DNA of 43,199 nucleotides from Jimgerdemannia flammicorona (GCA_003990765.1 RBNJ01000079.1:1-43199), one strand, 5' to 3'. Positions 10,124 to 43,199 are shown, counted from the first letter of the stretch. Program-made: numbers and translations. The notes: a model not told the origin generated them from the letters alone.

Positions 10124-10135
10124 ACAACTTCCTTA

Positions 10136-13100
10136 ATGATAATGAACAATCTATGTATTTTATTGATCAATGTCAATAGATTGCAGGATGGTGTCAAGAG
10201 ACGACAGCTTTTCAGATAGCTTAAAGTCAGGAGGTATGATGTTATGTTTCTTCAGGATGTTCAGGCTTATGGCAAGTCAGACTATGAGATTTGGAGTAAA
10301 GAATGGTATGGTGGAGCAGGTTGGAATAAGCAGGTGGGCATCTTGATTGGAATAGGCAAAGGCGAGTTAGTGGAGATAGAGAGCTTTGGCAACAGAATAA
10401 TTTGGGGAAGATTAAAAGGAGGGGCAGGTGATGGTTTGACAGTTGGATCAGTTTACCTCCCTACAGTTAGCAGAGAGTGAAAGCAATGGATTGAGGGATG
10501 GCAGGCATGGGATGGTCAGGAGGTAGTTGCTTTGGACATTTTGGAGGGGGACTTCAATATGGTGTATGATCGGGTGCTGGACAGATCTGATGGTAGAGCA
10601 GGAGTCGCAGTATCACATGGACTTTCCCATTGGCTTCAGGTGGAGCGAGATATAGACTTGGTGGATGGTGTTCATCAGCGGCAAGGGGATGCAGTGGGAC
10701 CTTTCACCCAGTGGCACCCAGTTGGAACAACCTTGGTTAGGACATGAATAGACTGGGTGCTAGTGGTGGAGTGCTGGGGTAATGTACTGGACATGGCTGA
10801 GATGCACTGGTGCCCTTGGTCAGATCACTGGGGAGTAGAGGTTTGCAGGAGATTCCAAGCAGCAGGTAGTGGTGGTGGATACTGACACCTCAATGTGACC
10901 TTACTCAGAAGAAAGAAGGAGAGGGACAATTTTGTAATAGTTGTGAAACAGGAAGTTAGGCAATGGCAGAGTGAAGGGCAGTTGATAGCAGAATGGTGGG
11001 GTAAATTCAAACACTTGGCTGGTACTTACTGGTGAAATGTTGGAGAAGTGGCAGGAAAAGAACAGAAGAATAAAGAAAGGAGAGTGGAGAAGGGGCTGAG
11101 ATGGCAATTGAAGCTCTTGGAAATGGGGAACTTGTCTGGAGAGGTGTGCCAACGTTTGACATTAGAGGTGGCTGAGTTGCAGGCAGATTTAAAGGAGTCG
11201 GAGACCAGGGTAGTGGATGGCCTGCTGGCCAGGCTATGAGCTAGATGGTTGGAAGAAGGAGAGAGGCCGACAAGATACCTGTCTGGTATCTTAAAGACCA
11301 GGAGAGTATGGTATAGCTGGGCTTCAGTTTTGTGCAAAGATGGAGTAGAGATCTCTGGAATTACTGATATATTAGGAGAGATATCTGGCCAATGGTGGGC
11401 TCTTTGGCAGGATGGTGGGGAGCAGTCTGAGGGCATGGAGTTTGAGGTAGATAATGATGATATGGTGAACAGTTGGCTGGTGGCAGTGATACCTGAGATA
11501 GGGGAAGCGGTCATGAGGGAGGTGTCCCTAGATGAGGTATTGGAAGTACTGAGGAAGATGCAGACTGATTCATCCCCAGGGGAGGATGGGTTGCCCTGGG
11601 AATTCTGAAAGGAGTTCAAGGCTGAGTTTGGTGACTGGTTGGTGGAGATGGCCAATGCTATTCTGAAGGAGGGCTGTTGGATAGACAATGGCTCCTTGGG
11701 GCTAGTTTCTCTTCTATACAAGGAAAAGGGAGATCGACAGGTGTGGCATAATTGGCAGCCTATCATACTGCTGAATGTGGATAGAAAATTGGTGTCGAGG
11801 ATTCTGGCAGGAAGGATGCAGCAGTATATTGGTACACTAGTTGGGGAGGAGCAGTGTGGCTTTATCAAGGGGAGGCAGATCAGAGATAGTACTGCCTGGG
11901 TGCAGAATGTTTTAGAAAGCTGCAGGAGCTGGCAGGTAGATGGCCAGATGGTCTTTCTGGATCAAGAAAAGGCCTATGACAGAGTGCAGTGGAGTTACCT
12001 AGAGGCTGTTCTGAGGAGGGCCGGATTTGGTGTAGTAGAGGCAGGGCATTTGATGGGCTTAGTGTGGGGATGCAGAGCAGCAGTCATGATGAATGGATGG
12101 TATGGACCAGAGTTTGCCTTGGGGCAAGGGGTGCTGCAGGGGGATCCTCTCTCCCCCCTTCTTTATGTACTTTCTCTAGAGCCTCTGCTGGCATGGCTGA
12201 AGGGGCAGCTTATGAGACTGAAGATGGGTGATGTGGTCTGGCAGCTGGGCACCTTTGCAGATGATATGGTAGTAGGGTTGGGTAGTCAGGAGGATGTAGA
12301 AGCCCTGGAAGAAGGGGTTGGACAGTATGAGGGGCTGGCAGGGGTGAAATTGAATTGGGGCAAGTGTGAGACAATGGAACTTGGTACTGGTCTGGGGGGT
12401 CATAGACAATTCAGACAATTGGTAGCTACAGGGAGTATGGTGCAATATCTGGGTATCTGGTTCTCAGTATATGGGACAGTCCTGCCAAAGGAGTGGTGGT
12501 GTGGTTTAATTCAGAGGCTGGAAGATGTGCTGACAGGTTGGTCAGGGAGAAGCTTCTCTCTGGTTGGCAGAATAGTAGTCTTGAATGTGTACTGGCTGCC
12601 CAAACTGTGGTATCTGGGCTATCATCTGGATTTCCCAGGGTGGGTGGTGCAGCAGTTGAAGAAGATTGTCGAAGGGTGGTTATGGCAGGGGAGGCATCTG
12701 CAGATTGGATGGGAAACTTTAGCAATGAGGACTTCCGATGGCAGCCTGGGGTTGGTGGATTTCAGATGCCAGCTGAAGGTGCTTCGGGGCTGGTAGGGGT
12801 GCCGAATGATGGAACTAGATGAAGGAGGTTGGGGCAGGCTGGCCATGGACAATTGGGAGGTCCGGTTCTGCCCTCGTGGTGAGGTTTGGAAGGATATGAG
12901 GGGCTTGCTTCAAGTTAGGAGTATAGGCCGACTGCAGTTTAAGGGGTTCTGGTGGGGTATTGTAGAGGCCTAGCTGGCCATGGGTTTGGTGGGCCCAGAG
13001 ATCAAGGTGGATGAGGACCCTGAGCAGAGGTGGTGGTGACTGGGAGACCTTCAGGTTGGTGGCTATAGTCTGAAGGAGTACTCTCTGATTGAGACAATGG

Positions 13101-17908: not shown

Positions 17909-18284
17909 TAGTGCTCCTAATGAATCAAATCAAAGATCTAATTTGAATTAAATTGAAGGCTAATTCTATTTGAGATCTGATTTGAACTCTATTTTTTGAA
18001 ATATAATAACTCAACAAATACATATCCAAATTTAATGATCTTTAGCTTGTTAGATTTCTCTTATATATATAGAGGAATCTAACAAGCTAAAGATTATTAA
18101 ATTTTGACATATATTAGTCAAGTTATTATATTTTGAAAAATAGAGTTTGAATTAGACCCTTAATTCAATTTAAATTTGATTTGATTTGAACTTGATTCAA
18201 ATTGAAAAATTCCCAATTCAATTTGATTCAAATGATCCTCAATTCAATTCAATTTGAATTGATTTGATTCATTTGCAAGCACTA
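17909..18284. mobile_element. Fold-back MITE copy (older)
   Basis: TAGTGCT...AGCACTA termini; internal palindrome TTTAGCTTGTTAGATT / AATCTAACAAGCTAAA as in 20983-21396; CpGs lost; no TSD seen. Confidence 0.85.
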
Positions 18285-18698: not shown

Positions 18699-20191
18699 TG
18701 TAAGAGGGTTACTTATTAGAGTAACTATTATGTAGTTCTGAAAGAGTTTTCTGGAAGTTCTAGATATTCTAGAAGACTGTTTTCTTAAGGTCAAGATCAA
18801 TTTCATATAGAGTATGTCCTCTAGCTTATTGATTTCAAGATTGAGTTGACATCTCAACCAAATTCCTTATTTGGACTAGTTCTGGATATTTAGGATTTTC
18901 TGTATTTCAGGAAGTTCAAGAAACTAAGACCAGCTTAGTTGAATCAGCATATCACTGCAGACAATACCCAATTAGAAGATTTCATAATAGGGTTAGAAGT
19001 GAGACCTAATAGAGAGTAGATTTATTTAAGAGTAGTTTGTGAGTTATTAAATAGGTTTATTTGCTATTTATGATATTGCTATACTAGGAGTAGTTGTGTG
19101 AAGGGATATTGTGGGGAAGTATTCAGGAGTTGTATTCAAATTGTTCAAGTCTGAGATTCTGAAGTCTGAGAGAGGGGGTATTTATACTAATAAGGGGCTA
19201 TCTGGACTATACTGAATATAGATGTAGCACTTAGTGCTTTGCTGAGTTGGAATGCAGTCATATAGTATAAGTGTGATCTGATATATCAAGAAATCATCTG
19301 ACTGCTGAGTTAGTTCACAGTCACATCATATAAGACTAATCTAACTATACTATGACCTAAGCTATCTATAGATTTAGATACTATCTGGTTAGTCTTTAAT
19401 AACATCACTATTGATGATATCATCTCTGGTAAAGTCTGAGCAGTTTTCTAACTTCTGATATCATCAGTTTCAAAGGTATCATCACCTCTGTCTCTTGCAA
19501 AATTACAGCTATCCTTGGTAGCAGTGGTTGTATAAGAATAATAGGTCTTGGTTCTCTTTTTTTTTTGGACTGCTGGTACATTTGTAAGGACTGGTCATCC
19601 TTGTCTAGGGCAAGGACTCTCAATATCATGGCTGGGGGTTTGAATCTTTCAGAAATGGTATTTTCTATAATCTGAGGTAATTTCTAATAGTAATATCTAT
19701 CATATAGATGAGCTTGAGATTGGTTTTGACAATGTCAGCTTTCTTGAGTTCAGATGAAGTATCCATCATTCTCCAACAGAGATGACACAGATAGAGCAAA
19801 TAGGGTTATTCAAATGTATTTTGCTTCTGCTAAGTAATGAGGTCTTTATATAGTTGCAGTATATCTTAGTCTTGAGTTGATAAGTATAGTTCATGAACCT
19901 TTGATAGATGAGATAGGATTCTTCTCATCTCAATTTGAGTTTGGTACTTCAGTTTTCTTTTGTAATAATATGGTACATCAAAACTAGTTATAGAGGTTCA
20001 GAGTCAGTCTTATGGTTGTAGTACTTCTTCTGGTATTCTTGTGTCTTGGTAGTAGGTTCTCATACTTGCTGGCATATTTTGTATAATTAGGTGATCTCTT
20101 CAGTAACTTGTTTTGTAGTCTTGTATGTGGTTTCCAAATTAGTTCTGAGGATAATATGTGATTTTGGTGGCTTGGAGGTTATACACTTATA
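18699..20191 (-). repeat. 3' LTR of family 1 copy 1
   Basis: Direct repeat of 23549-25039; follows the PPT AAGAAGGGGAGAG on the minus strand. Confidence 0.93.
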
Positions 20192-20982: not shown

Positions 20983-21396
20983 TAGTGCTCCCAACAAATC
21001 AAATCAAATCGAATTTAGCCCAAACTCAATTCGATTTGATCGAATCAAGGGTCCAATTCAATTCGATTCAAATCGAATCAAAGGTCCAATTCAATTCGAA
21101 GTTCGATTCAAACCTTAATTTTCAAAATATAATAACTTGACGAAACCTCATCCAAATTTAACGTATTTTAGCTTGTTAGATTCACCGTATTAATGTGATT
21201 CTAACAAGCTAAAGTATGTTAGATTTGGATGAGTTTATGCTGAGTTATTGCATTTTGAAAATTAGGGTTCAAATCAGACCCTCAATTTGATTTGACTTTT
21301 GATTCGATTCAAATTGAAAAATCCCCAATTCGATTCTACTCATTTAACCCTCAATTCGATTCGATTCGAATTGATTTGACTTGTTTGGGAGCACTA
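20983..21396. mobile_element. Young 414-bp hAT-type fold-back MITE inserted in the dUTPase region
   Basis: TIR TAGTGCTCCCAA/TTGGGAGCACTA; perfect 8-bp TSD TTCCTGTG (20975-20982, 21397-21404); the empty site is visible in copy 2 at ~39885-39900; CpGs retained. Confidence 0.95.
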
Positions 21397-23548
21397 TTCC
21401 TGTGTAGACTTACTTAACTTCTCAGTTGGAAACTGTAGCTTCTTTGGCTGCATATAGGTTATATCCAGCTGCCTTTTGACTTTCTTTAGTTGGGGCCTTA
21501 GCAGTTTGCCTTAACTTGATGAAGTCCAGTATTCTGGTAGTCAGGTTATTGAGGTAGTGCAGAGTAGTAACAGTTGCTTATATTGTTGTTTGGGGTTTTC
21601 AGTTGGGGTAGACACTGGCCATGTGTCCTGTCTTTTGGCAATAGAAGCATGCTCTGCTTCTTCAAAGTTCATTTCTTTTTTCTTTGGTGAGTTTCTTAAA
21701 GATACTCAGCTGAGTGGGTTCATGATTTCAGGATGTCTAAGAGGTGGATATGGAGGGAGCTCAGAATGCTTTATGCTTGGGTTCTTCTTTCTTAGTCCAA
21801 GTTTTTTCCTTATTATTGAATTATCTTTGGGGCAGAATTAGTCCAGCTGTCAGAATTCACTTGACTATAGTCTTGATTCTTGCCAGGTACTATTGTTGGT
21901 GATTACAACCAACTGAGTATTCTTGTTCTTAGATTTTCCTTATAAGCCATTCAGATAGAAGTGGTCTGCTCTTGTACCATTTTATGTTTTGTCATTGGCA
22001 ATGTATTCTAGGCCAATAGTGTTCAGAAGTAACTCAAGTTTTGTATAGAAGGTTTTAAATTCCTCCTTGCTATATATATTAAATTTGAGATTGCAGAGTT
22101 TAACTTGAGATTTAGCAATCATGATTTCACTGTGGTATTGAACAATTATGAGTTGTTTGAGTCCAGGAGCTATAGGATAGGCTTTATATCCTGGGGCATT
22201 ATTTGCTGTATTTTGGATAACAACTACAGGTCAGGTGTCCTATGTGAGGGGTTTTTCAGAAAAGGTTCACTACCATTCATCAGCAGGTTCTCAGAAGAAT
22301 GTAACAACTTGATGGACATAGGCTGTAGTAGTAGTAAAGAGTTGTTCCAGAGTGTGGTCTTGATTATTTGTTAGAAGACAGTCAGCAACTTACTCATTGG
22401 TCCATTGCTTGGCTTTAAAGTTAGTATCAACTATGTTAATGAATCTTTGAACTTCTTGTGCAGTACCATTGAAGGTAGGTAGGCTCAGATTTTTGATTGG
22501 TCGGGTCTGTTCAGCTAAGATAGTAATGGTTGCTGTCATTATAGCTATCTGGGCTATAAGGTCTAGAATCTGTTGATTTGCCATGTTGTTTACTAAAGGT
22601 GGTTGGACTACTGGTAGTAGTGTTACTAGTACTACTTGAGGTACTGGTACAGAGTATGATGGTATTCTTTGAGTCTGTGTAAGTTGCTGGAGTAATAGTT
22701 GTGAGTCTGGAGTAAGGGCTTGATAGATATAGCTATCTATTGCTATATAGGTATATTCTGTCCTGATAGAGGTACATCTCCTTCAGTAGTATATCTGGGA
22801 TTGAATTCACTGAGATACTCCTCCTCTTCTTTAGCATAGTCTCTATGTAGTTGAGTTTGCTCAGTATCAAAGTAGACAGAATTAGTTATATATCCAATTT
22901 TGGAAGGACTTAATTCAAAGTCAAGTTCTGGTTTAGTATTGGTTTTGAGTTCAGGTAGGGCTATAGCTGGGCCTGCTTCAGGTTCAGCATCAGGTTGTTG
23001 GCAGAGAGTTTCTCTTGTTTCTTTCTTAAGAATATGGCAGGTCTTGCTATTCTGGAAGCAGTAGTATAATGCAGTCTTGGTTCTAGTGCAGTGAAAGTCA
23101 GTAGAGTTGAGCCACTTGACTACAGAGACTTGGGCTTTGTGAGGAACTAAGACTAGAAAGACTGCTGCTGGTTGTCCTAGATTGCTTGGATTTGTGGAGC
23201 TGACAAAACTCTTGTTGAGAAGAGTAAAGAAGACTTCTATAAGACCTTTTTCATCCTGACTTGTAGGATGTAGAGTAAGGAGTTCAGTATATAGGGTTTC
23301 ACCTATCTGCTGATTTAATTGGAGTACTTCTTTCTTTGAATGAAGTCTGTCCCACTTGTTATAGGTATGAAGGTCAAATTGTTCTTATATGTCAGATTCA
23401 ATTCTCTCCAAATTGTCAGATTGTTCAGAATAAATTCCAGTTCAGAGGTTGGGCTTTATACCAACTTATAGGAATTCTCAGAGGTATTTATAGCAGGGTA
23501 AGGAAGCATCTTGAAGCAGAATTGGATTATAAACTGCTGCTACCAAGT

Positions 23549-25039
23549 TATAAGAGAGTTACTTATTAAGGTAACCATTACATAGTTCTAGAAGGGTTTT
23601 CTAGAAGTTCTGAATATTCTGAAAGACTGTTTTCTTAAGGTTAAGATCAATTTCATATAGAGTATATTCTCTATGCTTATTGATTTCAAGATTGAGTTGA
23701 CATCTCAACCAAAGTCCTTATTTGGACTAGTTCTAGATATTCAGGATTTTCCATATTTCAGAAAGTTCAAGAAACTAAGACCAGCTTAGTTGAATCAGCA
23801 TATCACTGCAGACAATACTCAATTAGGAGATTTTGTGATAGGGTTAAAAGTGGGACCTAACAGGGAGCAGATTTACTTAAAAGTGGTTTGTGAGTTATTA
23901 AATAGGTTTATTCACTATTTATAATATTGCTATACTAAGAGTAGTTATATGAAGAGATATTGTGGGGAAGTATTCAAAAGTGTTCAGATTGTTCAAGTCT
24001 GAAATTCTAAGGTCTGGGGGAGGGGGTATTTATACTAGTGAGAGACTATCTGGACTATGTTGAATATGGATATAGTACTTAGTACTTTGTTGAGTTGGAA
24101 TGCAGTCACATAGTATAAGTATAATCTGATATATCAAGAGATTGTCTGACTGCTGAGTCAGTTTACAGTCATGTCATATAAGGCTAATCTAACTATACTA
24201 TGACTGCTAAGCTATCTATAGATTTAGATGCTGTCTAGTTAGTCTTTGATGATATCACTATTGATGACATCATCTCTGGTAAAGTCTGAGCAGTTTTCTG
24301 ACTTCTGATATTATTAGTTTTAAAGGTATCATTATCTCTATCTCTTGCAAAATTATAGCTATCCTTGGTAGCAGTGGTTGTATAAGAATAACAGGTCTTG
24401 GTTCTCTTTTTTTTTGGACTACTGGCATATTTGTAAGAACTGGTCATCTTTGTCTAGAGTGAGAGCTCTCAATGTCATGCTGGGGGTTCAAACCTCTCAG
24501 AAATGATATTTTCTATAATCTGAGGCAATTTCTAATAGTAATATCTGTTATATAGATGGGCTTGAGATTGGTTTTGACAATGTCAGCTTTCTTGAGTTCA
24601 GATGAAGTATCTATCATTCTCCAATAGAGGTGACACAGATAGAGTGAATGGGGTTATTTAAATGTATTTTACTTCTGCTAAGTAATGAGGTCTTTATATA
24701 GTTGTAGTGTATCTTGGTCTTGAGTTAATAAGTGCAGTTCATGAACCTTTGATAGATAAGATAGGATTCTTCTTATCTCGGTTTGAGTTTAATACTTCAG
24801 TTTTCTTTTATAATAGTATAGTATACCAAAACTAGTTGTAGAGGTTCAGGGTTGGTCTTATAATTATAGTACTTCTTCTGGTATTCTTATATCTTAGCAG
24901 TAGGTTCTCATACTTGCTAGCATATTTTGTATAACTAGGTGATCTCTTCAGTAACTTGTTTTATAGTCTTGCATATGGTTTCTAAATTAGTTCTGAGGAT
25001 GACATGTGATTTTGGTGGCTTGAAGGTTGTGCACTTACA
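23549..25039 (-). repeat. 5' LTR of family 1 copy 1
   Basis: Direct repeat of 18699-20191, followed on the minus strand by ACT + TGGTAGCAGC PBS. Confidence 0.93.
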
Positions 25040-25499: not shown

Positions 25500-26345
25500 T
25501 AAAACTTATCACTTACTATTGATCTATTAAAAAAGAAGACTAAATTTAAATAGATAAATATATAGCAAAAAGTATTTAATAAATTCAAAACTAGATTAAT
25601 ATAAGTACTTATATATCTAGAGAAGAGCTAACTATATAGTAAGAAGGTTATTCTACAAGCTAATATAAATTCAATATAACTAAAAATAGTATATATTTAT
25701 ATAAAAGAAGAATAGAGTTGAATAATACTCTTAAATAAATCAAATCAATTTGAATTGAATTGAATTGAGATCTGATTTAATTCAATATTTTTATCTCAAC
25801 TTCAAAATATAATAATTTGGTAAAAATATATCCAAATTTAATATTCTTTATTATGTTATATTTATTATAATAATATATATCTAATAAGCTAAAATTTATT
25901 AGATTTGAATATATTTTAGTCAAGTTATTAAATTTTGAAAAATTAGTTTAAATTAAACTTTGAATTAAATTAAATTAGTCTCTAATTTGATTCAAAAAAT
26001 TTTAAATTAAAATAAATTATTATGAAATTTGATTTGATTCAATTTGTTTTAATTACTAGAGTTAAGTAGTATATATAATTATATATCTCAGCTAAAGAAC
26101 TTATAAAGAAAAAATATATAAATTCTATAAGTTAGAATATCTTATAGTTATTTGAGCTATAAAAAAGTTCTACTACTACTTTATAGAAAAATATTTTACT
26201 TTTCAGATATATATATAGACTATTTAGTTCTTATCTAATTATTGATTACAAGTAAACTTAAAGAAATCTATATCTAATAGATCATAAAGCTCTAAGTCTA
26301 TGATGCACTATTATATATTAATTAGAAAGAACTAATACTAATATA
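25500..26345 (+). pseudogene. Very decayed gypsy RT-connection/RNase H relic, split by a MITE
   Basis: DLLKKKTKFK*...FNKFKTRL and YKLEYLIVI*AIKKFYYYF align with 14190-14500 (ELLKKETKFE*...FNELKTRL; YKLKCLAVV*TVDKFYYYL). Confidence 0.75.
25723..26058. mobile_element. Fold-back MITE copy (oldest)
   Basis: Mutated TIRs TAATACTC...ATTACTA; flanks GAGTTGAA/GAGTTAAG consistent with an 8-bp TSD GAGTTGAG with one G>A in each copy; internal TTCAAAATATAATAA..ATCCAAATTTAA core. Confidence 0.8.
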
Positions 26346-26453: not shown

Positions 26454-29400
26454 TGTAATAGAACGAACGAACGAGACGCGACATACAACGAGCGATCACG
26501 TGACCTGGAGATGACGTCACCATCGAGCGCGACATACGACGCGAACAATGTAATAAATGAGTATCCAGCTTACCCCTAGCAATCGGCGCCACAGCAACTA
26601 GTGCTGTAGCAACTGATCATTGCTTAACAACAGAGGTCCTGATCATAAAGTGTTCCTAATCACAAACCATCTAACAAAGGTCACAATCATAAACCTCATC
26701 TATAGTTACCAAATTAGTCACTTATACTTAGTCAGAAATTGCAAACCAACTTGTATAAATATCCTCAGTTTCCATCTGAAATAAAGACAGTTTTAGTTCA
26801 GTCCTTGATACAAGAATCAAGTTCCCCTCCACACACACACATTCCTCTGAGTCTTAGTAATGATATCTAAGTAACTTTAGTATTTCTGACTAAACTCTAG
26901 AAGTCTAGCTAACTTCTGCTAGAACTGAGACTGGTATATAAATTACAAAGACTTAAGTAAACCCTTTATTGAACCTGAATTCCAAGGTGAATTCAGTCTG
27001 TGCACAGCAAAGAACAAGTCCCTTATAATTATAGTTAATAAGAAGGATATTACTACTACAATTATTTTTAAATAAGTACTTCTTTATACTAAAGACTTCT
27101 TAGTATACTTGTATACTAAGTTCTTAGGTAATACCTTGTTTTCCTAATTATCCAAAGGATAAGAGAGAAGTAGAAATAAGAGTTATTATAACTTGATAGC
27201 AGTAGAATTATCAAGTTAAGAAGATATCAAGATCATACTCTTGAGAAGTTGAAATAAGACCAATTTTAGATAAGAGTAACCCCTAGAACTGACTGTAGAT
27301 TCCCCAGGAATAAACCCCCAAACAGAGCCAGATAAGCTATTATCATTAGGACCAAGTAGTACCAGAAAACTACAGATCCAGAAATCTACTAGCAAGTAAT
27401 TAACTAGGTATATAGAAATCTATATAAGGCCTTTAGGAACTTCCATCCAGGTTTTAGAAATATAGTCAGCTGCTATAGATTCTACACACTTCTCCATAAC
27501 TACCTTGGAACTACTAGAACTCAAGAATCTATTATTATAGCTACTCAGGAATTTCTAGACTATATCTCACTTTCTGTAGTAAGAGAAGTAGCTGCTGAGT
27601 AGATTGTATCTGACAGATACTATCATACTCCTACCAGGACCTCCCTCTACTATAGGTTAGTTGTTTACTATACCTCTACTATAATAAGATATAAGACTGA
27701 ACAAGTAGGCCACCCACCTCTTACTGCTGATCAAGAAGTAGGTCCATCTACTCTATCAGAGGCTGATATCTTCTTTGAAGGACCCAGTCAGTATAAGGAT
27801 ATACTATCTCATCAAAGAAGAGAGTCAGATGAAGACTCTGCAGGTTACTAGTCTGACAATAGTCAATAAGAAACAGCAGATCTAGGAATTTACCAAGGAC
27901 TTATAGATTAAAAAGATTAGACCTCAGAACCAATCTAGCTACCTATATAGAGATTTGATCTATCTACTCTTACAGGACTTTTTGATCTGATCTCTAGGAA
28001 TCAAGTAACCTCAAGTCATACAATACTACAATCTCATCAGGCAGAACAGTTTTCAGGAGAATCTATCTCTACAGACCTACTACCAACAGTCAATACAATA
28101 GTAGATATCAATATTGCAACTCTGACTATCCAATTAGCTACACTAGCAGAGATAGTAGGATAAATTGCTAAATAGAACAAACCTATCAAGACTCTGAGAA
28201 TTCCCAATTTCAGTAGAAGAAATAGAATATTGAAACCTTCATTAATATAGTTGATATAGAGTACTAAGTAAACCAATGAAATAATAACTGAGTATCTACA
28301 GAGATGCTTACCAATAACTAAGATAATACCTTTCAACAACTATTTACCACATCAGCAGTACAAGTGGAAACAGTAGTAACATTCTTTACTAGAACAGTAG
28401 CTGAGTTCTGGTGTATTTTAGAAGAATATCTAGTAATTTGAGAAGACTACTCTCAAGTTACTAGCTAAGTACTTGATCAAGTTAGATCAGATTGAGATAA
28501 CTATGCAGCAGGCTCAGGACTCAAGACCCTACTACTGAACAAAGTCTGAAATATAGTATATATATAAAAACTTAGAACAAATCAGTCTAGATGAAGTTTC
28601 ATAAGAATAGTAAGGAGGACTTAAAAATCTTTACCACTAGGATGAATACCTATCTCAAAATTGTGGAACTTACTTATTAGGAAAATAATTTGACCATCAA
28701 TAATATCAGAGCCAACTATCTTTTTACAGCTCTATCAGACTGACTCACTCAGAAGATTAAGGAACAAGGTCTTCTCTAAGGATATCTCCACTACTTATGG
28801 TACTTTGTCCAGGTATAAAGAAGAGTCTGTGAAATCTTTATTATATAGATCCCATAAAATTCAGAATATAAAAAGAATTACCAAGATAGGAGGAATCCCT
28901 CCAGAAGGAATAATTAAAGAAATGATCAAAGAAATGATCAAAGGAACTAGTGAAACCCCAGAGGACCAAGACTCTCTAATGAGGATAAAAAGAAGTAGCT
29001 TTGTAAAAAAGAATTGTATTTTATTTGAAGAAGATAGGACATATCTCCTTCAAATGTCCTGAGAAGAGAAACAGATCAGATGAGCTTAATAACTAGAACA
29101 TCACTCTTATTAGAGAAGACTCAAGAAAGAAAAACCTCAAGAATATCATCAAAGTATATAAAATATGGTACAAGACTACTATTCCCACTAAGACCCATTC
29201 TACTAATATAGGATATAACCTCTACAGTAGCCAAGATCTCATCATTCCACTAAGTATTAATATATAATATATACTGGAATTATAATATAAGCCTTCAAAG
29301 GAATATATATACATCTTGCTAAAAGAAGCAGCCTGGTCAAAGAATTCAATATTGGGCTAGAAAGAGGAGTAGTTAATCAAAATTTTGGAGATATATCATT

Positions 29401-30836
29401 TGAAGTCAAAGCAGACCAACAAATTTTTTAGGCAATCATTGAAGAAATCTATCAAGATCTTACCATTGAAGAAGTCTCTGAGCTCTCTCAGACAGACTAT
29501 AGCAAGAAAGGGTTTGAATCAACCAACAAACCCCCTAGTCAAAAGGTTACCACTATAAAAGAAGCTAATGAAAACTAATATAAGAGAATTGTAGATGATT
29601 ATATACCATATAGATGATGCCCTCATTTTATCTAAATATACTATATATAATATATTGGTGAATACCACACATGTCTCTTCAAGATTTTCAAAATTCAATC
29701 CAAGAAATACCAAGCCTAACAGACTAAAGAACTCAAACAAGACTACTCTCCTTATGAAGAATAGGAAGAGACTAACTTTGAGGAGACTGATGATAATTGG
29801 GATAAAGAGCTCAATACTATCAAGAAAGAGGACAGTTATATCAAGTTTACAGGCCAAGTTTATAAATAGAATGTCAATGTTTTACTAGATAGTAGTACTA
29901 CTAGAAACTATATTAGTACTAAGACTGCTAAGAGGATTGGAGCCTAAAGCCGACCAGCCACTAAGAAAAGAAGTATTATCTTTGATGATAGTAAGACTGA
30001 ACCTTTGACCAAGATCTGTAAAGATCTACTGCTCAGAATTGACAAATATCAAGAAAAGTTAGACTTTAGTATTGTAGTCTTTCAGGACAAGATATTATTC
30101 TAGGAAAAGCCTAGTTGACTCAATATAATCCAGATATCAACTAGAGGACCAATAAGGTTAACCTGATCCATGAAGGCAGAAAAATTACTCTGATATCCCA
30201 AGAAGATACTAATTATCAAAGAATTGAAATCATCTCTACCATTTAAATAAAGAGACTTTCTCATAAAAAAGAAAACACATACTTTATTTATATTATACAA
30301 AAAGTCACTAAAGTTCCAAATAGTCTTATCTTACTAAAAGCTTAAGAATTGTTTGAAGAATTTCAAGATATATTCCAGGAATCTAAAGAGCTTCCACTCA
30401 AGCACCAAATCCAATATGGAATTGATCTCATTCCAGAATCTAAATCTCTATATAAGAGTATTTACTAGCTGACCCAACCTGAACTTAAGATCCTCAAGGA
30501 TGAATTGATCAAACTATTGGTCCAAAGATATATTGAACTCAGCTATTCTCCATTTGGAGTTTCCATTCTGTTTATTAAGAAGAATGGCTCTTTGCAAATG
30601 TGTATTAACTACAGAGCCCTCAACAAGATTACCATCATGAACCAGTATACCTTATCTAAGATTGATGAGTTATTATACCAAATCTTCAAGGTTAAGATCT
30701 TTTCCCTACTGGATTTATTAAATAGTTATCACCAGATTCTCACTTGATAAGAAAGTTATTGAGAAGACAGCTTTCTGAATATAGTTTGAACACTATCAGT
30801 TCTGAGTTATGTCTTTTGGTTTGATCAATATATATA
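26454..30836 (+). mobile_element. Ty3/gypsy LTR element, family 2 (5' LTR, pre-Gag domain, Gag, dUTPase, protease, RT start), interrupted by LINE D
   Basis: LTR from TGTAATA (26454 or 26549) to TATTATA (27190); PBS TGATAGCAGTAG at 27194; Gag KPIKTLRIPNF; knuckle remnant KKIGHISFKCP; dUTPase PTKTHSTNIGYNLYS, RSSL, GVVNQNF, KGFEST (29150-29525); protease LLDSSTT..ILGKA*L; RT SPFGVSILFIKK, CINYRALNKIT, KTAF, VMSFGLIN. Confidence 0.9.
26461..26590. promoter_or_regulatory. CpG-rich island with E-box (TCACGTGA 26496) and CRE (TGACGTCA 26512)
   Basis: 17 CpGs counted in 130 bp, against essentially none in the flanking kilobases; direct repeat CGCGACATAC at 26477 and 26528. Confidence 0.65.
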
Positions 30837-33800: not shown

Positions 33801-36235
33801 CTACAGTACCCTATTATCTAATAAAGAGGAATTGAGGTGCCAATGTCCAGGCCTATTCCTACTCCTCTCAAAATATCTCTGTCCTAGTAGCCTCCAATAA
33901 TCTGACCATGGACACCACTCCACCTCCAGCAACTTCCAAATATCCAAACCCCAGCAGCTTACTATCAAAATTCAGTTAATTCTTATCCCCAGGCCCCCTG
34001 CCCAATGCATGTATACTCTTCTATCACTCCAATACTCTCTACCAGCATCTACCAGAGTGCTTAGTCTTTCCACTTCCTCCTATACTGCCAGCCCTCCACT
34101 CCTGCCCTCAGCTCCCCATCCTCTATTGGTTCTATCCACTAGTACATCCTGGACTATATTGAAGTCTTCACCAAGCATATCCACCCTGGCTTCTGCAAGG
34201 GCCCCACTCTCCTAGAGATCCTTTACCCAATCTATACACTCATCTCATACAGCAGAGTAGTAGTAAGAATCCACTGTAACTGGCTCCTAACCTATATATA
34301 TCCACTCTCTCTAGACCAATCTATCTCTCCAGCTCTTCACATTGTATATCTCCCCTCTATCTCTCTAGACCAGAATCCCAACCTTGCCCTTCCAAACTGC
34401 CTCACCTCCTCATTCCTTCATCTATTCCAGCCTATTCAAATCATCCTCATACCTGACATTCTGCAAAAGGAAGAGATCAGCCTCCAATCCCTTTAGCCAA
34501 GTAAAAATGTTCCTACATTGAGAAGAGCTCTATAACCCATTCACATTTAAGGAAAAGATATTAGTTGTACTATTTATAAGAAAATACTATGTGTTAACAG
34601 GTTCATCCTCTACTGCTCTATACTCATTACTTCCTGTGCCATATCCAGATTATATTCTGCAGGCTCCTCCTCCTCTTCAGCCCTCTTAGCCTCCAATCCA
34701 GTCAACAACTCATTCATCTCCCCATCCACCTTCTCCTCAAACTCTTTCTGATACTCCAGGCAGGCCTTCTGTCAGAGCTACAATCCATGATACTTAGTCC
34801 AGTAGTAGTTGGCCCTCTCACCAGTAACACCTGCCAGCTCTGTCTCCCTCTTCTTATCCACCTCATACCCTTTCTCCTCGAGGTACACTACAAGAATTTC
34901 TGTCTTCAATGCCATCACCACTCCATTCTCCTGTAGAATCCATGCCCAATACTCATTACTCATTACTCTAAGGTCTACCTCTTTCAACTCTTCAGCTGCT
35001 AAGTTATTCATCATTCTATACATCCAAAGTAGGTTCTCCACCTCCTTCCCTCCTGGAGTCACTGGCCTCTCTCCATCTAGCATCATGGTGTCAGCCCCTG
35101 TACTTGCAGACTCATTCCATACCTCTGGAATATCCACCAGTTCCTCCTCTCTAATCACCACCACTTGTCCCCCTTTTACTATCTCCAGAACTTCAAATTG
35201 TACTTACTGGGTCCCCTGCATGGGTACATCCTCTACCACTCTACTTTGAGAAGCCAGATCTCACCTGATAAGAGGGGTAGGAGTAGGTGAGTCCTCTCAA
35301 GTCTCCTCCCAGACCTCAAATGTACTATCTGCATATGGAATATTATCAGTCACCTCCCTGTCCTCTCCTGTCCCCTTCTCTCCAATTCCTCCACCCTCAC
35401 TAGCCCAGACACTCACTTTGGCATCTCCTGTCTTCTTAATTCTACTATATTCTTCTATAGTCTACCCTCCAGTTTAGCCAGTAGCTCCTTCTGCCTCTTA
35501 TGTCCCTGGGCCCTTTTCCACTGCCTCTTGTCTACTCGAATCTGCTTCCCATCTACCACCTCCAAATGTATTGACTCTATAAAAGCCTTCCAAGCCTTCA
35601 CCCACCACTCCACTATACCACTCAGATCTTCCAGTACTTCCAATAAGTTCTCTTCCTCCTCCTTACTTTCCTTCACCCTCATCACCTTGTATAAGATTGC
35701 CCCCCAGACCATCACTGAAGGCCAGTCTCTTGCCTTCCCAGTAGCTTTCTTTTCTGCTAACCAAATCCTGATATCAATATCTCCAGTCCAGAATGAGGTC
35801 CCTTCCCAGACTCTGAATCCAACATCTACTACCTCCCCATACTCAGCTATGATCTCCTCAACTCTCCTTCTTATCTCCACCACTATCACCATGAGTACTC
35901 CTTTCACCAGCAGTTGTACCACCCTGAGGTCCCATCTCAGGCAATATGTCATTAGAATACATATCTCCCCAACAGTTAGTCCAGCCTTCAGTGCCTCCTC
36001 CAAAGGCCCAGCCTCCTCAAAGTCCACCTCTACTTCCTCCAATCTCTTCAGAAACTTCACTGATACCACTCCAGCCACCTGCTTAGTAATTAGCCCCAGC
36101 ACCATTTTCGCTATCACCACTAGGCCCTGGAAGTACAAAGTAACCACAAACTCTGAGATTGACTTCTTGAGTAATGGGGCCACCACCAAGCCCATCATAC
36201 TATCTGCCAAATCTCTCTATCATCCAAGCCCCATC
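30837..36235 (-). mobile_element. LINE copy D (ORF2 ~34560-30950, ORF1 36235-~34590); ORF1 interrupted by family 1 copy 2
   Basis: Poly(T) at 30837-30858; QKDPLSPILY/FTDD (32364..32636), GGLGLVDF (31731..31991), LNVNGL and LLQN near 34460-34550; ORF1 pieces 34778..35164 and 35455..36210. Confidence 0.93.
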
Positions 36236-37735
36236 TGTAAGCATACAACCTCCAAGCCACCAAAATCACATGGCATCCTCAGAACTAATTTGGAAACTAC
36301 ATGCAAGACTACAAAACAAGTTACTGAAGAGATTATCTGGTTACACGAAATATGCCAGCAAGCACAAGAACCCACTACTAAGATACAAGAATACTAGAAG
36401 AAGTACTACAACTATAAGACTGACTCTGAACTGCTATAACTAGTTTAGTATACTATACTATTATAAAAGGAAACTGAAGATACCAAACTCAAATTGAGAC
36501 AAGAAGAACTCTATCTCATCTACCAAAAGGTTTACAAACTACACTTATTAACTCAAGACCAAGATATACTGTAACTATACAAGACCTTATTACTTAGTAG
36601 AAGCAAAACACATTTGAACAACTCTATTTACTCTATCTGTATCACCTCTATTGGAGAGTGACAGATGCTTCATCTGAACTCAAGAAAGTCAATAACATCA
36701 AAACCAATCTCAAGCCATCCATGTGACAGATATTACTACTAAAAATTGCCTCAGATTACAGAAAATATCATTTTTGAGAGGTTTGAACCCCCAGCCATGA
36801 CATTGAGAGCTCTTGCCCTAGATGAGAATGGCCAGTCCTCACAAATGTGCCAGCAGACCAAAAAGAAAAAGAACCAAGACCTGTTATCCTTATACAACCA
36901 CTACCACCAAGGACAGCCTTAATCTTATAAGAGATAGAAGTAACAATACCTTGAAACTAATGATGTCAGAAGTCAGAAAACTGCTTAGACTTTGCCAGCA
37001 ATGATGTCATCAATAGTGATGTCATCAAAACTAACCAGACAACACCTAAACCTATAAATAGCTTAGCAGTCATAGTATAGTTAGATTAGCCTTATATGAT
37101 ATGACTGTGAACTAACTCAGCAGTCAGACAATCTCTTGATATATCAGATCACACTTGTACTATATGACTGCATTCTGACTCAGCAAAGTACTAAGTGCTA
37201 TATCTATATTTAGCATAGTCCAGATAGCCCCTCACTAGTATAAATACCCCCTCCCCCAGACCTCAGAACACTAGACAATAAGATCTGAACAATCTGAATA
37301 CAACTTCTGAGCACTTCCCCACAATATCTCTTTATACAACTACTCCTAGTATAGTAATATCATGAATAGCAAATAAATCTATTTAATAACCCATAAACCA
37401 CTCTTAAGTAAATCTGCTCCCCATTAGGTCCCACTCCTAACCCCATCACGAAATTTCCTAATTGGGTATTATCTGCAGCAATACACCAATTTAACTAAGC
37501 TGACCTTAGTTTCTTGAACTTCCTGAAATATGGAAAATCTTAAACTTCCAGAACTAGTCTGAAAAAGGACTTTGGTTGAGACATCAACCTGATCTTGAAA
37601 TCAATAAGCATAGAGGATGTACTCTATATGAAATTGATCTTGACTATAAGAAAACAGTCTTCCAGAATATCCAGAACCTCCAGAAAACTCTTTCAGAACT
37701 ACGTAACAGTTACTCTAAAAAGCAACCCTCTTACA
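36236..37735 (+). repeat. 5' LTR of family 1 copy 2 (1500 bp), TATA-like TATAAATA at 37239
   Basis: Matches 41132-41736 and the reverse complement of both copy 1 LTRs. Confidence 0.95.
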
Positions 37736-37738
37736 ACT

Positions 37739-37750
37739 TGGTAGCAGTGG
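37739..37750 (+). other. Primer-binding site, probably initiator tRNA-Met
   Basis: Consensus of the three PBS copies is TGGTAGCAGCGG, complementary to a tRNA ending ...CTGCTACCA as in eukaryotic initiator Met tRNAs. Confidence 0.75.
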
Positions 37751-37759
37751 TTTACAATC

Positions 37760-40700
37760 CAATTCTGCTTCAAGACACTTCCTCACCCACTATAAACCCC
37801 TCTGTGAATTCCTACAAGTTGGTATAAAGCCCAACCTCTGAACTGGAATTTATTCTGAACCATCTGACAATCTGGAGAGAATTGAACCTAATGTACAAGG
37901 ACAATTTGACCTCCACACCTGCAACAAGTGGGACAAACTTCATTCAAAGAAAGAAATACTCCAGTTAAATCAGCAAATAGGTGAAACCCTATTCACCAAA
38001 CTCCTTACACTATACCCAGCAAGTCAAGATGAAGAAGGTCTTATAGAAGCCTTCTTTACTCTTCTCAATAAGAGTTTTGTTAGCTCCACAAATCTGAGTG
38101 ACCTAGGATAACCAGCAGCAGTCTTTCTAGTCTTAGTTCCTCATGAAGCCCAAGTCTCTGTAGCCAAGTGGCTCAACTCTACCGACTTTCACTGTACCAG
38201 GACTAAGACTGTACTATACTACCAATTCCAGAATAGTAAGGCCCACTATATTCTTAAAGAAGAAGCAAGAGAAACCCTTCATCAACTATCTGACCCTGAA
38301 CCTGAAGCAGGCCCTGCTACAGCTCTACCTGAATCTGAAACCAATACCAAACCTGAACTTGACTTTGAATTAAGTCTATCTGAAATCAGATATACAACTA
38401 ATTCTGTCTACTTTGACACCGAGCAAACCCAATTACATGGAGACCAAACCAAAGAGGAGGAGGAGTATCTCAGTGAATTTGATCTCGGATATACTACCGA
38501 AGGAGAGGTACCTCCATCAGGACAGAATACACCTATATAGCAAAAAACAGCTATCTATCAAGCCCTCACTCCAGACCCACAACTACTACTCCAGCAACTT
38601 ATACAGACTCAAAGAACACCCTCATACTCTACACCAGTATCTCAAGTAGTACCAGTAACATCACTACCAGCAGTCCAACTGCCTCCAGTAAACAATATGG
38701 CAAATCAACAGATTCTAGACCTCACAGCCCAGGTAGCAATAATGGTAGCAACCATTACTATCTTAGCTGAACAGACCTGACCTACCAAAAATCTGAGCCT
38801 ACCTACCTTCAATGGTACCACACAAGAAGTCCAAAGCTTCATTAGTATAGTTGACACCAACTTCGAAGTCAATTAATGGACCAATGAGTAAGTTGCTGAC
38901 CATGTTCTGACAAATAATCAAGACCACACTCTAGAACAACTCTTTGCTACTATCATGGCCTATGTCTGCCAAGTTGTTACATTCTTCTGAGGACCTGCTG
39001 AAGAATAGTGGCAAACCCTTCCTGAAAAACCCCTCACATGAGATACCCAATCTACAGTTGTTGCTCAAAATGCAGCAAACAATGCTCCAGAGTATAGAGT
39101 CCATCCTGCAGCCCCTGGACTCAAACAACTCATGATTGCTCAATACTGCAGCAAAACCATGATTGCTGAATCTTGAGTAAAACTCTGCAACCTCAAATTC
39201 GATATATATGGCAAAGAAGAATTCAAAACCATCTGTACAAAACTCGAGTCACTCCTGAATACTGTTGGCCTAGGATATATTACCAATGATGAAGCATGAA
39301 ATGGTACAAGAGTAGACCATTTATTCGATGCACTGCCTGAATGGCTTACTAGAAAAATCCAAGAACAAGGCCACCCAGTTGGTTGTGATCACCAACAATA
39401 GTGCCTGGTAAGAATCAAGACTATGGTCAAGTGAATTCTAACAGCTGGACTAATTCTGCCCTGAAGACAATTCAATAACAAGGAAAAGACTTGGACCAAG
39501 AAAGAAGAACCCAAGCATGAAGCATCCCGAGCTCCCTCCACATCTACCTCTTGAACATTCAGAAATCGTGAACCCACCTAGCCAAGTACCTTCAAGAAAC
39601 TTACTAAAGGAGAAAGGAATGAACTTCGAAGAAGTAGAGTATACTTCTATTGCCGAAAGACAGGATACATGACCAGTGTCTACCCCAACCAAAAACCCCA
39701 AACAGCAATATAAGCAACTGTTACCACTCTGTACCACCTCAACAACCTGACCACCAGAATACTAGACTTTGTCAAGTTAAGACAAACTGCTAAGGCCCCA
39801 ACCAAAGAAAGTCAAAAAGCAGCTGGATATGACTTGTATGCAGCCAAAGAAGCTACAGTTTCTAACCGAGAAATCAAGCAAGTCTATACAGGAATCGGCA
39901 TCCAAATCCCTGAAGGACATGTTAGAAGAATATGCTGTCGCAGCAGCCTAGTATTGAAAGGACTCTCAGTGGAAGGAGGAGTCATTGATGAAGATTATAC
40001 AGGCGAAATTATTGTCCTCATCTGAAACCACAGTTGGACACTCTTCAAGATCCCTATTGGATTCTGTATTGCCCAGATACTATTCAAAAAAATTGAGTCA
40101 ACCCTGACAGTCAAGGAAGTCCCTGAACTACTACCTACCATCTGAGGATCCAAAGGATTTGGCTCATCAAACAAGGCCCCAGCCCAACCTACCATGAGCA
40201 AAGAAGAACAATTCTACAAGAATATTGAAGATGGATATGTATATACCAAGTGGCCAATGCCCACATGGCATTGGAATATACTCTTCCTGAATGATTGATG
40301 ATTTCTTCTCTTGCATCAATAAACTGGCTCAAAGAAGAACCAATAGAAGGAAAACTCCTACAACTGAAATCACCACCATTGGATCAGACAAACTGCTTAC
40401 ACTTAAAGCTTTTGTCAACTGAGCACCTGTCAAGATTATGATAGACAGTGGTGCCTCAGGCAACTTCATCAATGAAGAGACAGCCAACAGACTCAAGGTC
40501 TTCACCTCTCCAGTACAACAAACTCAAGCAGTTGCTACAGCTGATGGAACCTCACATATTATTAGCAAAGAAGTCCACAATCTACTCTTATGAATTGGCA
40601 ACTACTGAGTATATATTACCCTCCAAATCATACCACTTCCTGATAATGAAATCATCCTTGGGACTCTATGGTTAAAATAAGAGAACCCTATGATCGATTG

Positions 40701-41100
40701 GGTAAACCATTCCCTGATCATCAAGAAAGGACACCACAACTTCAAACTGTAAGGTGAAAAGGACCCACTCAACTCTAGTGACTCTGGACCAAAGATCACC
40801 CACATCAACAAGCTACAACTTAAGAAATTAGCCAAGAAATACCCTCTCTTTGCTATCTCCATCCATCCATCCAAAGGAGACCCCGAGAACTCTGAAGAAG
40901 ACTTTTCCAAAGTTGACAGCCATGTCAGACCACTACTCCAGAAGATCTAAGACATATTTCTGAACCGGACCACAGAACCACCTGCACCTGTCATTATTAA
41001 TGACCAAGAAGAATACAAAGTTGAACAAATTCTCAACAAACATAGCCACAAGAACCATTCAAATGATACAACAACACCAGAACAAATTAGAAGGCCCTGA
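37760..41100 (+). pseudogene. Polyprotein relic: unknown N-terminal domain, Gag + zinc knuckle, dUTPase, aspartic protease, chromodomain stub
   Basis: Gag from ATG 38697 (LSLPTFNGT); knuckle YFYCRKTGYMTSVYP ~39640; dUTPase AAGYDLY, RSSL, GGVIDEDYTGEI, IAQ, *GSKGFGSS (39760-40170); protease MIDSGASGNFI at 40438 and IILGTLWL; then DIFLNRTTEPPAPVIINDQEEYKVEQILNK. Confidence 0.92.
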
Positions 41101-41131
41101 CAAGGACATCGAAAGCTAAGAAGGGGAGAGT

Positions 41132-41736
41132 TGTAAGCACACAACCTCCAAGCCACCAAAATTGTATGGCATCCTCAGAACTAATTTGGAAACCACATAC
41201 AAGACTACAAAACAAGTTACTGAAGAGATCATCTGGTTACACGAAATATACCAGCAAACATGAGAACCCACTACCAAGATATAAGAATACTAGAAGAAGT
41301 ACTATAACCATAAGACTGACTCTGAACCACTATAACTAGTTTGGTATACTGTACTATTACAAAAAGAAACCAAAGGTACCAAACTCAAATTGAGACAAGA
41401 AGAACCCTATCTCATCTACCAAAAGGTTCATGAACTGTACTTATCAACTCAAGACCAAGATACACTACAACTATACAAGACCTCATTACTTAGCAGAAGC
41501 AAAATACATTTGAACAACTCCATTCACTCTATCTATGTCACCTCTATTGGAGAGTGATGGATGCTTCATCTGAACTCAAGAAAGCTGACAATGTCAAAAC
41601 CAATCTCAAGCTATCCATGTGACAGATATTATTACTAGAAATTGTCTTGGATTATAAAAAATATCATTTCTGAGAGGTTCGAACCCCCAGCCACGATATT
41701 GGGAGCCCTCACTCTAGATGAGAATGGCCAGTCCCA
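41132..41736 (+). repeat. 3' LTR of family 1 copy 2 (first ~605 bp)
   Basis: Matches 36236-36840 and diverges after GAGAATGGCCAGTCC. Confidence 0.93.
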
Positions 41737-43199
41737 CCATCTCTCTCTACTACAATTCACGTTACACACACTTTTCAACGCACTTTCAAAGTATTTATTG
41801 GCGAGAGATACTAAAGCAATGTCAACCAGCAAGCAAGCCGACGTGCATACTAGGTCGGGTGGACCTGGGGCCTTCGACTGGCAGACTGTCGGGAGAGGGT
41901 ATGGATTGGGGTTAGGATCTTTCGGTGGCTCGAATGGGCAGGGCAGCTCGGGTAGTGGAGGTGGCACTGGTGGGGGGGCTGGAGAGAAGCAGGGGAGGAG
42001 CTTTGCGGACACGCTGAAGGATGGAGACTGGCTGTTGGGCACTCGGAGTGGACCGGCAAGAGGGAAGGGGAAGCAGAGGGATGGAGCCGCTGGGGGAACT
42101 GGACCTTCGCGGGGGGGAGGTGGGGGAAGTGGAGGGCTGGCTGGGGGTAGTGGCGGGACTGCTGATGGTGGCGTGACGGTGAATCTGGAAAAAAAAAGAG
42201 ATGTGACGGTTGATGGCCAGGGGGGGCAGGGGCTCCTGATGCAGAAGGGGGACCTGGCTGATAGTGTAACGGGACTGGCAGTGGCCCCATTGCTCAAGAA
42301 GTCAATCTTGGAGTTCGCGGCTACCTTGTGCTTCCGGGGCTTAGCAGTGACGGCGAGGATGGTCCTGGGGCTTATCTCGAAGCAGGTGGCTGGTGCGGCC
42401 TCAGTGAAGTTCTTGAAGGGCATGGAGGGGGTTGAGGTGGGCTTTGAGGAGGCGGGCCTACTGGATGAGGCCATGAAGACAGGAGTGATGGTTGGGGAGG
42501 TAGTGGTCTCCATGGTTAGGTGCTTGAGGTGGGACCCCAGGGTCGTGTAGCTTCTGGTGAGGGGGGTGCCTACGGTGACTAAGGAGGAGACTAGGAGGAG
42601 GGTGGAGGAGGTGATGGTTGAGTATGGTGACGTGGTGGACATTGGATTTCAATTGTGGGAGGGGACGACTATCAGGATGGGTGACGTCGATGTCAGGATT
42701 CAGTTGGCAGGGAAAGAGGCCACAGGGAAGCCGAGTGACTGGCCCTCGGTGCTGATGTGGGGGGCTGTCGTCTGCAAGGTGTCGAGGGTGAAGGGGAGTG
42801 AAGAGGAGGAGGAGGACTTGCTGGAGGCACTGGAGGAGTTGGGTGGGGCTGTGGCAAGGAGGGCGACGGCCTAGAAACTGTTTGAGGAATCGACGTATCT
42901 GGAGGTTGTGGGCGGGAGGCGTATCTGTATGGATAAGAAGCAGTGGGAGTGGATCCAGGGACGCAAGAGGCAGAAGGAGCTGTTGGCGGGTATAACAGGT
43001 GGGGGGAAGAAGCAGTCGGGTAAAGCTGAGGAGACTGGGGGTGCTGAGGCCAGTGTCTGGGCTGGTAAAGGAGGAGAGGAGGTAGAAGCGAAGGAGGCAG
43101 GTGCTGGGAAGGGGCTGGTCAAGGACCCATTTGCTGATGGTACCTTTGAAGTGTGGGAGCCGGAGTTGGATGCCACCCCCACCCCACTTATCAGGAGGG
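41737..43199 (+). mobile_element. LINE copy E, 5' UTR and ORF1 (ATG 41819), youngest copy, runs off the window
   Basis: ORF1 is homologous to copies C and D; many CpGs are retained; in-frame TAG stops at 42548 and 42872. Confidence 0.92.

Follow-up and report, generated by a model that had tools for sequence, protein, structure and literature searches.

In three dUTPase-bearing Gypsy families of the Jimgerdemannia flammicorona genome, Gag is preceded in frame by an additional domain and an acidic linker. The leader that encodes them is purged of ordinary start codons, so that one RNA probably yields two capsid proteins, one long and one short, by near-cognate initiation at a conserved CUG or GUG and leaky scanning to the Gag AUG. 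The elements were analyzed in a window of 43,199 nucleotides (GCA_003990765.1, RBNJ01000079.1:1-43199) and in related copies drawn from a 231-Mb assembly. A sequence-only reading of the same window had described the domain and overlooked the main signal, the AUG-free leader with its conserved near-cognate start.

The host elements are Ty3/Gypsy LTR retrotransposons with dUTPase, chromodomain and a single ORF, and LTRs with TG...CA ends, PBS and polypurine tract are all present. Well-preserved copies encode, in order, Gag with a CCHC knuckle, dUTPase, protease, RT, RNase H, integrase, SH3 and chromodomain; the protease-RT-RNase H-integrase order was found in family-2 copies with Pfam, and family-1 copies show the identical order. 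The chromodomain behind integrase is clear at the family-2 locus L103 (PF00385, E 3.8e-12) and is a remnant, recognized by eye, in the window's family-1 copies. A first look returned 1947 family-1 candidates, of which the best 40, 93-94% alike, were scored; family-2 candidates numbered 764 by DNA (best 40 scored) and 2182 by protein (best 150 scored). The copies examined are the best-scoring ones, and 40 stretches were chosen for long open frames. Over 1860 polyprotein columns, families 1 and 2 share 37% identity. A third, more decayed family was found through an outside protein and 30 of its loci were fetched, bringing the families that carry the domain in this genome to three, where two had been recognized before.

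Copy A of family 1 (36236-41734, + strand) begins with a 5' LTR bounded by TG...CA (36236..37735), of which 37001-37735 is the standard family LTR and 36236-37000 an extra piece found in an RT-less subfamily. Its PBS (37739..37751, +), which we take to be of the initiator-Met tRNA type, lies 3 nt past the LTR end. AUG-started Gag, comprising an N-terminal helix, capsid and CCHC knuckle, extends from 38697 to approximately 39700 (+), its ATG being present in 54 of 59 covered family-1 copies, and the dUTPase follows in frame behind the zinc knuckle (39789 to approximately 40140, +; PF00692, E 1.3e-19). Protease, deletion junction, chromodomain remnant and polypurine tract occupy approximately 40380 to 41131 (+), with the junction at ~40958 and RT, RNase H and integrase missing; the 3' LTR (41132..41734, +) is cut short at the start of a LINE-like element. 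The domain of copy B, the second family-1 copy, lies on the opposite strand (23001..23411, -), with TTG as its start codon and the Gag ATG at 22584. A related element, the family-2 copy, occupies about 26500-30800, and its extension (27277..28100, +) runs from a fixed stop at 27277-79 through a domain reaching ~27704 and then the linker, with GTA at the family's GTG site (27295) and ATA at the family's Gag ATG site (28098).

Family 1 is not itself RT-less; RT is absent only from a subfamily, to which both window copies belong. RT, RNase H and integrase were found in 9 of 20 fetched family-1 stretches, namely in all 9 whose match reaches ~40958, the remaining 11 ending before the junction point or bearing other deletions, and the deletion junction of the subfamily is spanned by all 40 scored matches. 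The domain and all downstream motifs found share one frame in 8 of 18 long copies, while the other 10 break at varied places. Copy A carries two private stops within its extension, at 38109 and 38538.

Models and alignments place the domain at 37872..38282 (+) in copy A, a length of ~135 residues where ~90 had been proposed. The motifs quoted in the sequence-only reading, with their 19-residue spacing, are present in copy A, copy B and the family-2 copy, and the alignment is significant against shuffled controls: the similarity between window copies (score 58) was reached by 2 of 2000 shuffles and that between better-preserved copies (score 96) by 0 of 2000, as was that of each pair among the three families (0 of 2000). 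The five other frames of the family-2 region gave no significant similarity, 54-473 of 500 shuffles reaching the score. AlphaFold, given 7 sequences, predicted six helices (pLDDT 86.6, pTM 0.78), and a second model with family 1 leading returned the same fold for residues 1-137 followed by a disordered linker. The capsid region of the long model is poorly folded (pLDDT under 50) and gave a weak match only, to Drosophila Arc (E 1.8). The most conserved residues of the domain (W100, S103, an H, a T and L-Y-x-R) cluster around the loop joining the last two predicted helices and probably form its binding site. The linker itself, ~140 acidic and proline-rich residues (38283..38696, +), is predicted to be disordered save for one short helix, and its motifs AGP[SA]T and PSH[ST]AP recur across families, the latter resembling, imperfectly, PT/SAP late domains.

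The domain is coding and under purifying selection. Stops occur at 0.005 and 0.006 per codon in the Gag frame of the extension versus 0.04-0.08 in other frames, although this openness is inflated by the choice of copies on similarity and partly on a long open frame. With dN/dS computed from transversions only, so that decay mutations are avoided, the domain gave 0.21 in family 1 (95% bootstrap 0.09-0.44; divergent copy L112 against 73 copies) and 0.29 in family 2 (0.17-0.53; 46 young against 30 old copies), similar to the 0.30 of Gag. Values were 1.06 and 2.49 for the leader before the start and 0.55-12 for the other two frames of the domain; the linker gave 0.63 in family 1 (0.32-1.5, an interval that includes 1) and 0.44 in family 2, and the first 25 codons 0.26 (interval undefined) and 0.78 (0.22-6.2). 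The earlier proposal that the domain was kept even in the RT-less derivative is less well supported than it was put: the domain was inherited from an autonomous family, and although nine extended-LTR copies show a dN/dS of 0.22 (5 synonymous and 6 non-synonymous transversion alleles, p 0.019), this low value could be carried-over variation. L112 (G000:C29053:1-1580) is a single divergent family-1 copy, 79-84% alike to the rest and with CpG largely intact; no close sister of it occurs among the 40 scored matches.

To place the domain among known proteins, we searched profiles, sequences and structures. The profile search of 1.84 billion representatives returned 5 matches, three of which share the motifs (P0002, E 3e-13; P0003, E 5e-7; P0006, E 6e-4); the other two, P0004 and P0005, are tandem-repeat proteins and were dropped as relatives. 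P0001 is a family-2 protein whose gene call begins at the GTG and which may derive from this organism or a very near relative. P0001, P0002, P0003 and P0006 are all singletons on short contigs, and P0003 continues into a Gag-like helix. Pfam returned no family for the domain or its outside relatives, only weak sub-threshold rows, and 0 of 10 members matched PHROGs or NCBIfam. FANCD2, the best PDB-sequence match (E 0.026), was rejected as a relative. There was no usable match to the domain in phage records or in the ESM Atlas (feature score 0.76 at best; in structure comparison a poor model reached TM <=0.46), and Foldseek against PDB and BFVD gave none at E 0.001. Comparison of two models with 48,161 chains in VIA reached best Z scores of 4.9 (rmsd 6.0, 118 aligned) and 4.7 (rmsd 3.8, 104 aligned); the weak rows include Spt6, archaeal filamentous virus capsid proteins and RSV capsid (Z 4.6, rmsd 4.4, 87 aligned), with no matrix protein among the matches listed. 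On these models such rows fall in the range of common helical arrangements, and the comparison presents the predicted fold neither as new nor as different. Scans for relatives with DNA context gave 240 and 169 pattern matches in JGI metagenomes, and a scan of viral contigs 73, with 0 confirmed in either. The view of the sequence-only reading that this is a selected, helical domain of no known family agrees with the dN/dS values, the six helices of the AlphaFold model and the absence of a Pfam match, and profile search together with multi-copy comparison added three outside proteins that share the domain. The domain family is without precedent in the libraries searched; for the element class, the dUTPase and the translation strategy, precedents exist in each case. 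A search of mostly freely accessible literature turned up no fungal LTR retrotransposon with a domain of non-AUG start ahead of Gag.

An in-frame stop at 37839..37841 (+) bounds the extension upstream in 74 of 74 family-1 copies (72 TGA, 2 TAA), leaving 285 codons to the Gag ATG rather than the ~310 codons from the PBS given previously, and an in-frame stop also follows soon after the PBS in 43 of 46 young family-2 copies. The earlier remark that the extension has no in-frame ATG was confirmed. The candidate start in family 1 is a CUG (37872..37874, +) with A-3 and G+4, a context kept in 69 of 74 copies, which lies eleven codons past the stop and 275 codons from the Gag ATG. Its family-2 counterpart, a GTG six codons past the stop, has A-3/G+4 in 38 of 46 copies, the others mostly reflecting G-to-A decay. 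Past the stop, these are the sole in-frame codons among CTG, GTG, TTG and ACG with both A-3 and G+4, the distance from CUG/GUG to the conserved Gag AUG is 263-275 codons, and the predicted fold starts 3-6 residues beyond them. Tryptophans at residues 20 and 100 from the CTG carry the same numbers from residue 1 of P0002, and the conserved Trp is residue 100 from a family-3 GTG and 98 from the family-2 GTG. The family-3 GTG, two codons past a stop, has a weaker context (G-3, A+4), and at codon 20 after it a further stop is present in 30 of 30 copies; this family has lost nearly all its CpG, and the stop may have arisen by CpG decay. P0006 begins five residues further upstream and contains an internal Met.

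Frame-shifting indels common to at least two copies number 3 per PBS-to-start leader and also occur in U5, one shared leader indel lying 16-18 nt upstream of the CTG in 14 of 74 copies, whereas none of the distinct indels of the extension is shared (0 of 17 and 0 of 3); constraint on the frame therefore begins at about the CTG. An in-frame start within the LTR through a 1-nt-shorter haplotype was considered and rejected, as both haplotypes occur in many copies and their frames differ upstream of the CTG. No significant hairpin was found 3' of the start codon. A second PBS-like word (AAGTTGG...) occurs 50-80 nt past the true PBS at 37812-37825, and in the same place in family 2.

Inherited AUG codons are missing in every frame from ~375 nt upstream of the PBS to the Gag codon, a zone of 1.33 kb in family 1 and 1.26 kb in family 2. 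Between -374 and the Gag codon there are 0 stable ATG sites, versus 25 in the first 1000 nt of Gag in family 1 (73 copies) and 21 in family 2 (46 copies); the control triplet CAT gave 11 versus 13 and 13 versus 10, respectively, and eleven other triplets likewise showed no gap. Family 3 (30 loci) has 0 ATG sites from +18 to +991 and 22 after. In-frame ATG codons amount to 2 of 19,212 and 3 of 11,994 in the extension versus 206 of 15,524 and 116 of 11,952 in Gag, and at xAY codons before G the ATG-forming base is inherited in 0 of 5 and 0 of 8 cases in the extension versus 15 of 16 and 18 of 20 in Gag. Because every ATG site within the zone also has ACG alleles, the ATGs of single copies occurring at ACG/ATG/ACA sites, we read the ATGs seen there as products of CpG decay rather than as inherited codons. 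ATG count per copy drops with rising CpG count (rho -0.63, n=59; rho -0.78, n=44), and L112 and L192 have 0 ATG in 880 and 960 nt.

Upstream, the zone ends at a short ORF, and downstream at the Gag ATG, which occupies the same column in all three families. In family 1 the sole inherited AUG between a TATA-like box and Gag opens a four-codon uORF (37362..37376, +), reading M-N-S-K/E-stop in 52 of 58 copies listed; family 2 has a uORF of equal length at -378, reading M-x-x-K-stop in 27 of 31 copies. These uORFs lie 105-125 nt past the TATA-like box TATAAATACCCC (37239..37250, +), which is shared by families 1, 2 and 3 at -500, -482 and -456 from the PBS. From this box alone we infer that transcription starts just downstream of it.

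In the scheme that we consider probable, ribosomes would enter at the cap near the TATA box and either pass the four-codon uORF or translate it and then resume scanning. A minority would initiate at the CUG or GUG and yield a minor long polyprotein, and the remainder would scan ~800 nt further to the Gag AUG and yield the main polyprotein, the AUG-free zone representing the signature of leaky scanning. Several near-cognate codons in good context lie upstream, out of frame or blocked by stops, and these would draw off some ribosomes. Non-AUG starts need A or G at -3 and G at +4 and engage ~2-30% of ribosomes, the rest scanning on (PMC3542737). It is improbable that the long form is real but reaches its start by other means, namely a spliced or alternative upstream AUG exon, internal entry or shunting. 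Family 2 does have a pyrimidine-rich CAG directly upstream of the GTG and a leader that folds better than shuffles (z -3.5), and shunting in rice tungro bacilliform virus likewise involves a short uORF with a non-AUG start behind it (PMC3542737). However, the family-1 leader is structurally unremarkable (z -1.3), the only inherited AUG from the TATA box to Gag is that of the uORF, which stops after four codons in both families, and neither splicing nor shunting would require U5 and the extension to be AUG-free in all frames. A frame that is open by chance, whether as a non-coding leader or as a fragment of a captured gene that is now dead, would fit the absent AUG and the few outside relatives but is very hard to credit. 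Stops are infrequent in this frame, dN/dS falls well below 1 in it and in no other, the amino-acid sequence is conserved among the three families and in three outside proteins, and the predicted fold is confident; the selection results refute this reading unless they are alignment artefacts.

Near-cognate initiation with leaky scanning has several counterparts. In MLV, an upstream in-frame CUG in strong context produces an extended Gag, glyco-Gag, beside the AUG form by leaky scanning (PMC3542737), and the same sequence feature, a strong-context in-frame near-cognate codon with no AUG before the Gag AUG, was found here. The MLV extension, however, has a signal peptide and directs the protein to the cell surface, outside virions (PMC3542737), whereas the extension described here spans 263-275 codons with a predicted folded domain and no hydrophobic segment, in an env-less retrotransposon. 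Rice tungro bacilliform virus likewise combines a short 5' ORF, a non-AUG start and ~895 AUG-free nt to the main ORF, but it expresses separate ORFs I-III and shunts past a stable stem-loop (PMC3542737); here there would be two isoforms of one ORF, and U5 itself is AUG-free. PEG10, a domesticated Ty3/Gypsy gag, starts at both an upstream in-frame CUG and an AUG, although its extension comprises 34 residues, without an additional domain, in a host gene (PMC2800197). The dUTPase-bearing fungal chromovirus PosPlaTy3-3 of Postia placenta shares the dUTPase before protease and the chromodomain after integrase; the sections consulted describe no pre-Gag domain or non-AUG start, and the supplementary tables may list extra ORFs (PMC2864245). 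In Drosophila MDG1, sORF1 and sORF2 are selected accessory coding sequences between 5' LTR and gag, but they are separate short ORFs and sORF2 has a hydrophobic membrane segment (10.1101/2025.03.14.642691). In the elements studied here no separate ORF with its own stop before gag was found: the frame enters Gag in preserved copies, and the sequence, fused to Gag, looks soluble. Plant ORF0-type extra ORFs are reportedly also selected accessory coding sequences between 5' LTR and gag, in the form of separate short ORFs.

With respect to function, we tentatively favor, at somewhat less than even confidence, a low-copy adaptor at the capsid surface that engages a host factor, because three families retain the fusion to Gag and because the N-terminus of Ty3 Gag is directed outward on the capsid (PMC6525542). 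The long form would co-assemble into the particle at low copy number, the acidic tether would hold the helical domain outside the capsid, and the host factor would serve particle trafficking, nuclear entry or chromatin tethering. In retroviral Gag, these tasks are the job of matrix and p12-type regions. The highest 19-residue hydropathy within the extension is 0.37-1.18 in five sequences, with no signal or transmembrane segment; residue 2 is Glu, Asp or Thr, never Gly; and basic and acidic residues are equal in number (16/16 and 15/15), leaving the overall charge neutral. Lacking a signal or membrane segment, Gly2 and net charge, and joined to an acidic, Pro-rich linker, the domain therefore qualifies neither as a glyco-Gag nor as a FAST-like sORF2 (10.1101/2025.03.14.642691).

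Ranked below this adaptor, and rather unlikely, is a role in which the translation scheme is the same but the protease frees the domain as a soluble accessory protein that, for example, counters host RNAi or DNA methylation or controls copy number. The domain looks soluble, is neutral and is predicted to fold alone, the heavy CpG and CpA decay of these elements implies strong silencing pressure, and MDG1 sORF1, likewise upstream of gag, is nuclear (10.1101/2025.03.14.642691). Against this, a long, partly selected linker fuses the domain to Gag in all three families; for a freely acting factor an ORF of its own would suffice, as in the case of the MDG1 sORFs. Least plausible of the three, and decidedly doubtful, is a matrix-like, membrane-binding module with which the main Gag would begin, a minor short form then arising from the internal AUG. 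The sequence-only reading had named matrix-like, targeting and anti-silencing functions as options. Size and helical content of the predicted model fit such a module, and the succession of helical domain, acidic/proline spacer, capsid, zinc knuckle, dUTPase and protease parallels the layout of betaretroviral Gag-Pro. N-terminal Gly2 for myristoylation is a mark of retroviral matrix, if not a universal one; here it is absent and the charge is balanced, so that the usual sequence marks are missing. In addition, non-AUG starts usually capture 2-30% of ribosomes (PMC3542737), and with A-3/G+4 at the Gag AUG the short form would be expected to predominate.

Ty3/Gypsy Gag is usually viewed as capsid plus nucleocapsid, and Gag with a non-AUG extension has, to our knowledge, been described mainly in MLV and in the domesticated PEG10. 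A domain behind a CUG or GUG, kept in families with polyproteins ~37% alike, would mean that N-terminal modules and Gag isoforms of the retroviral style also arose in env-less elements. It is conceivable, if somewhat short of an even prospect, that an env-less fungal-type lineage independently evolved a retrovirus-like Gag strategy, in which the uORF and non-AUG start set the ratio of the domain-bearing long polyprotein and the domain engages a host pathway at the capsid surface (nuclear entry, chromatin tethering, vesicle traffic or counter-silencing). If so, annotation of transposons from their ORFs would overlook such AUG-less domains, which may be widespread in long leaders classed as 'untranslated'. 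The analysis provides a new domain family with a confident model and an exact candidate start codon, and an AUG-free stretch ending at the Gag AUG offers a simple screen for hidden accessory domains elsewhere.

Several further features of the window and of the fetched loci were recorded. The LTR of the RT-less subfamily is lengthened by 765 nt at its 5' end (36236-37000, 19426-20189, 24276-25039, 41132-41734). By eye, the first ~360 nt of this piece translate into something like an integrase C-terminal piece, without a Pfam match, and the ~300 nt that follow show 76-81% likeness to sequence 3' of the family-2 chromodomain. The extended LTR also holds a polymerase III B-box-like GGTTCGAACC with an A-rich tail (~36780-36880, 41675-41735), which recurs in the family-2 3' region (L103 ~6700-6850) and is possibly SINE-derived; comparison of the LTR with Rfam and tRNA gave no match. 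Inserts 74-76% like the extended family-1 LTR piece are present in two family-2 copies (L041 2250-3045, L035 2259-3050). By eye, a family-2 ORF 3' of pol (L103 ~7000-7600) looks similar to a frame that precedes the leader in L112, on the minus strand in the first 300 nt as oriented. MITE-type AT-rich inverted-repeat elements lie at 21062-21396, 17936-18284 and 25768-25952, one of which interrupts the copy B dUTPase, and an ORF with a Crinkler effector N-terminal domain lies at 581-1099 (-; PF20147, E 2.8e-21), a gene that, together with the heavy CpG and CpA decay and the type of element, would fit a fungal host. LINE-like elements with RT (PF00078) occupy 8405-12796 (+), 35455-36216 (-) and 41740-43199 (+); related ORF1-like frames gave no Pfam match. 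One of these elements starts where the copy A 3' LTR is cut, and such elements flank several fetched loci.
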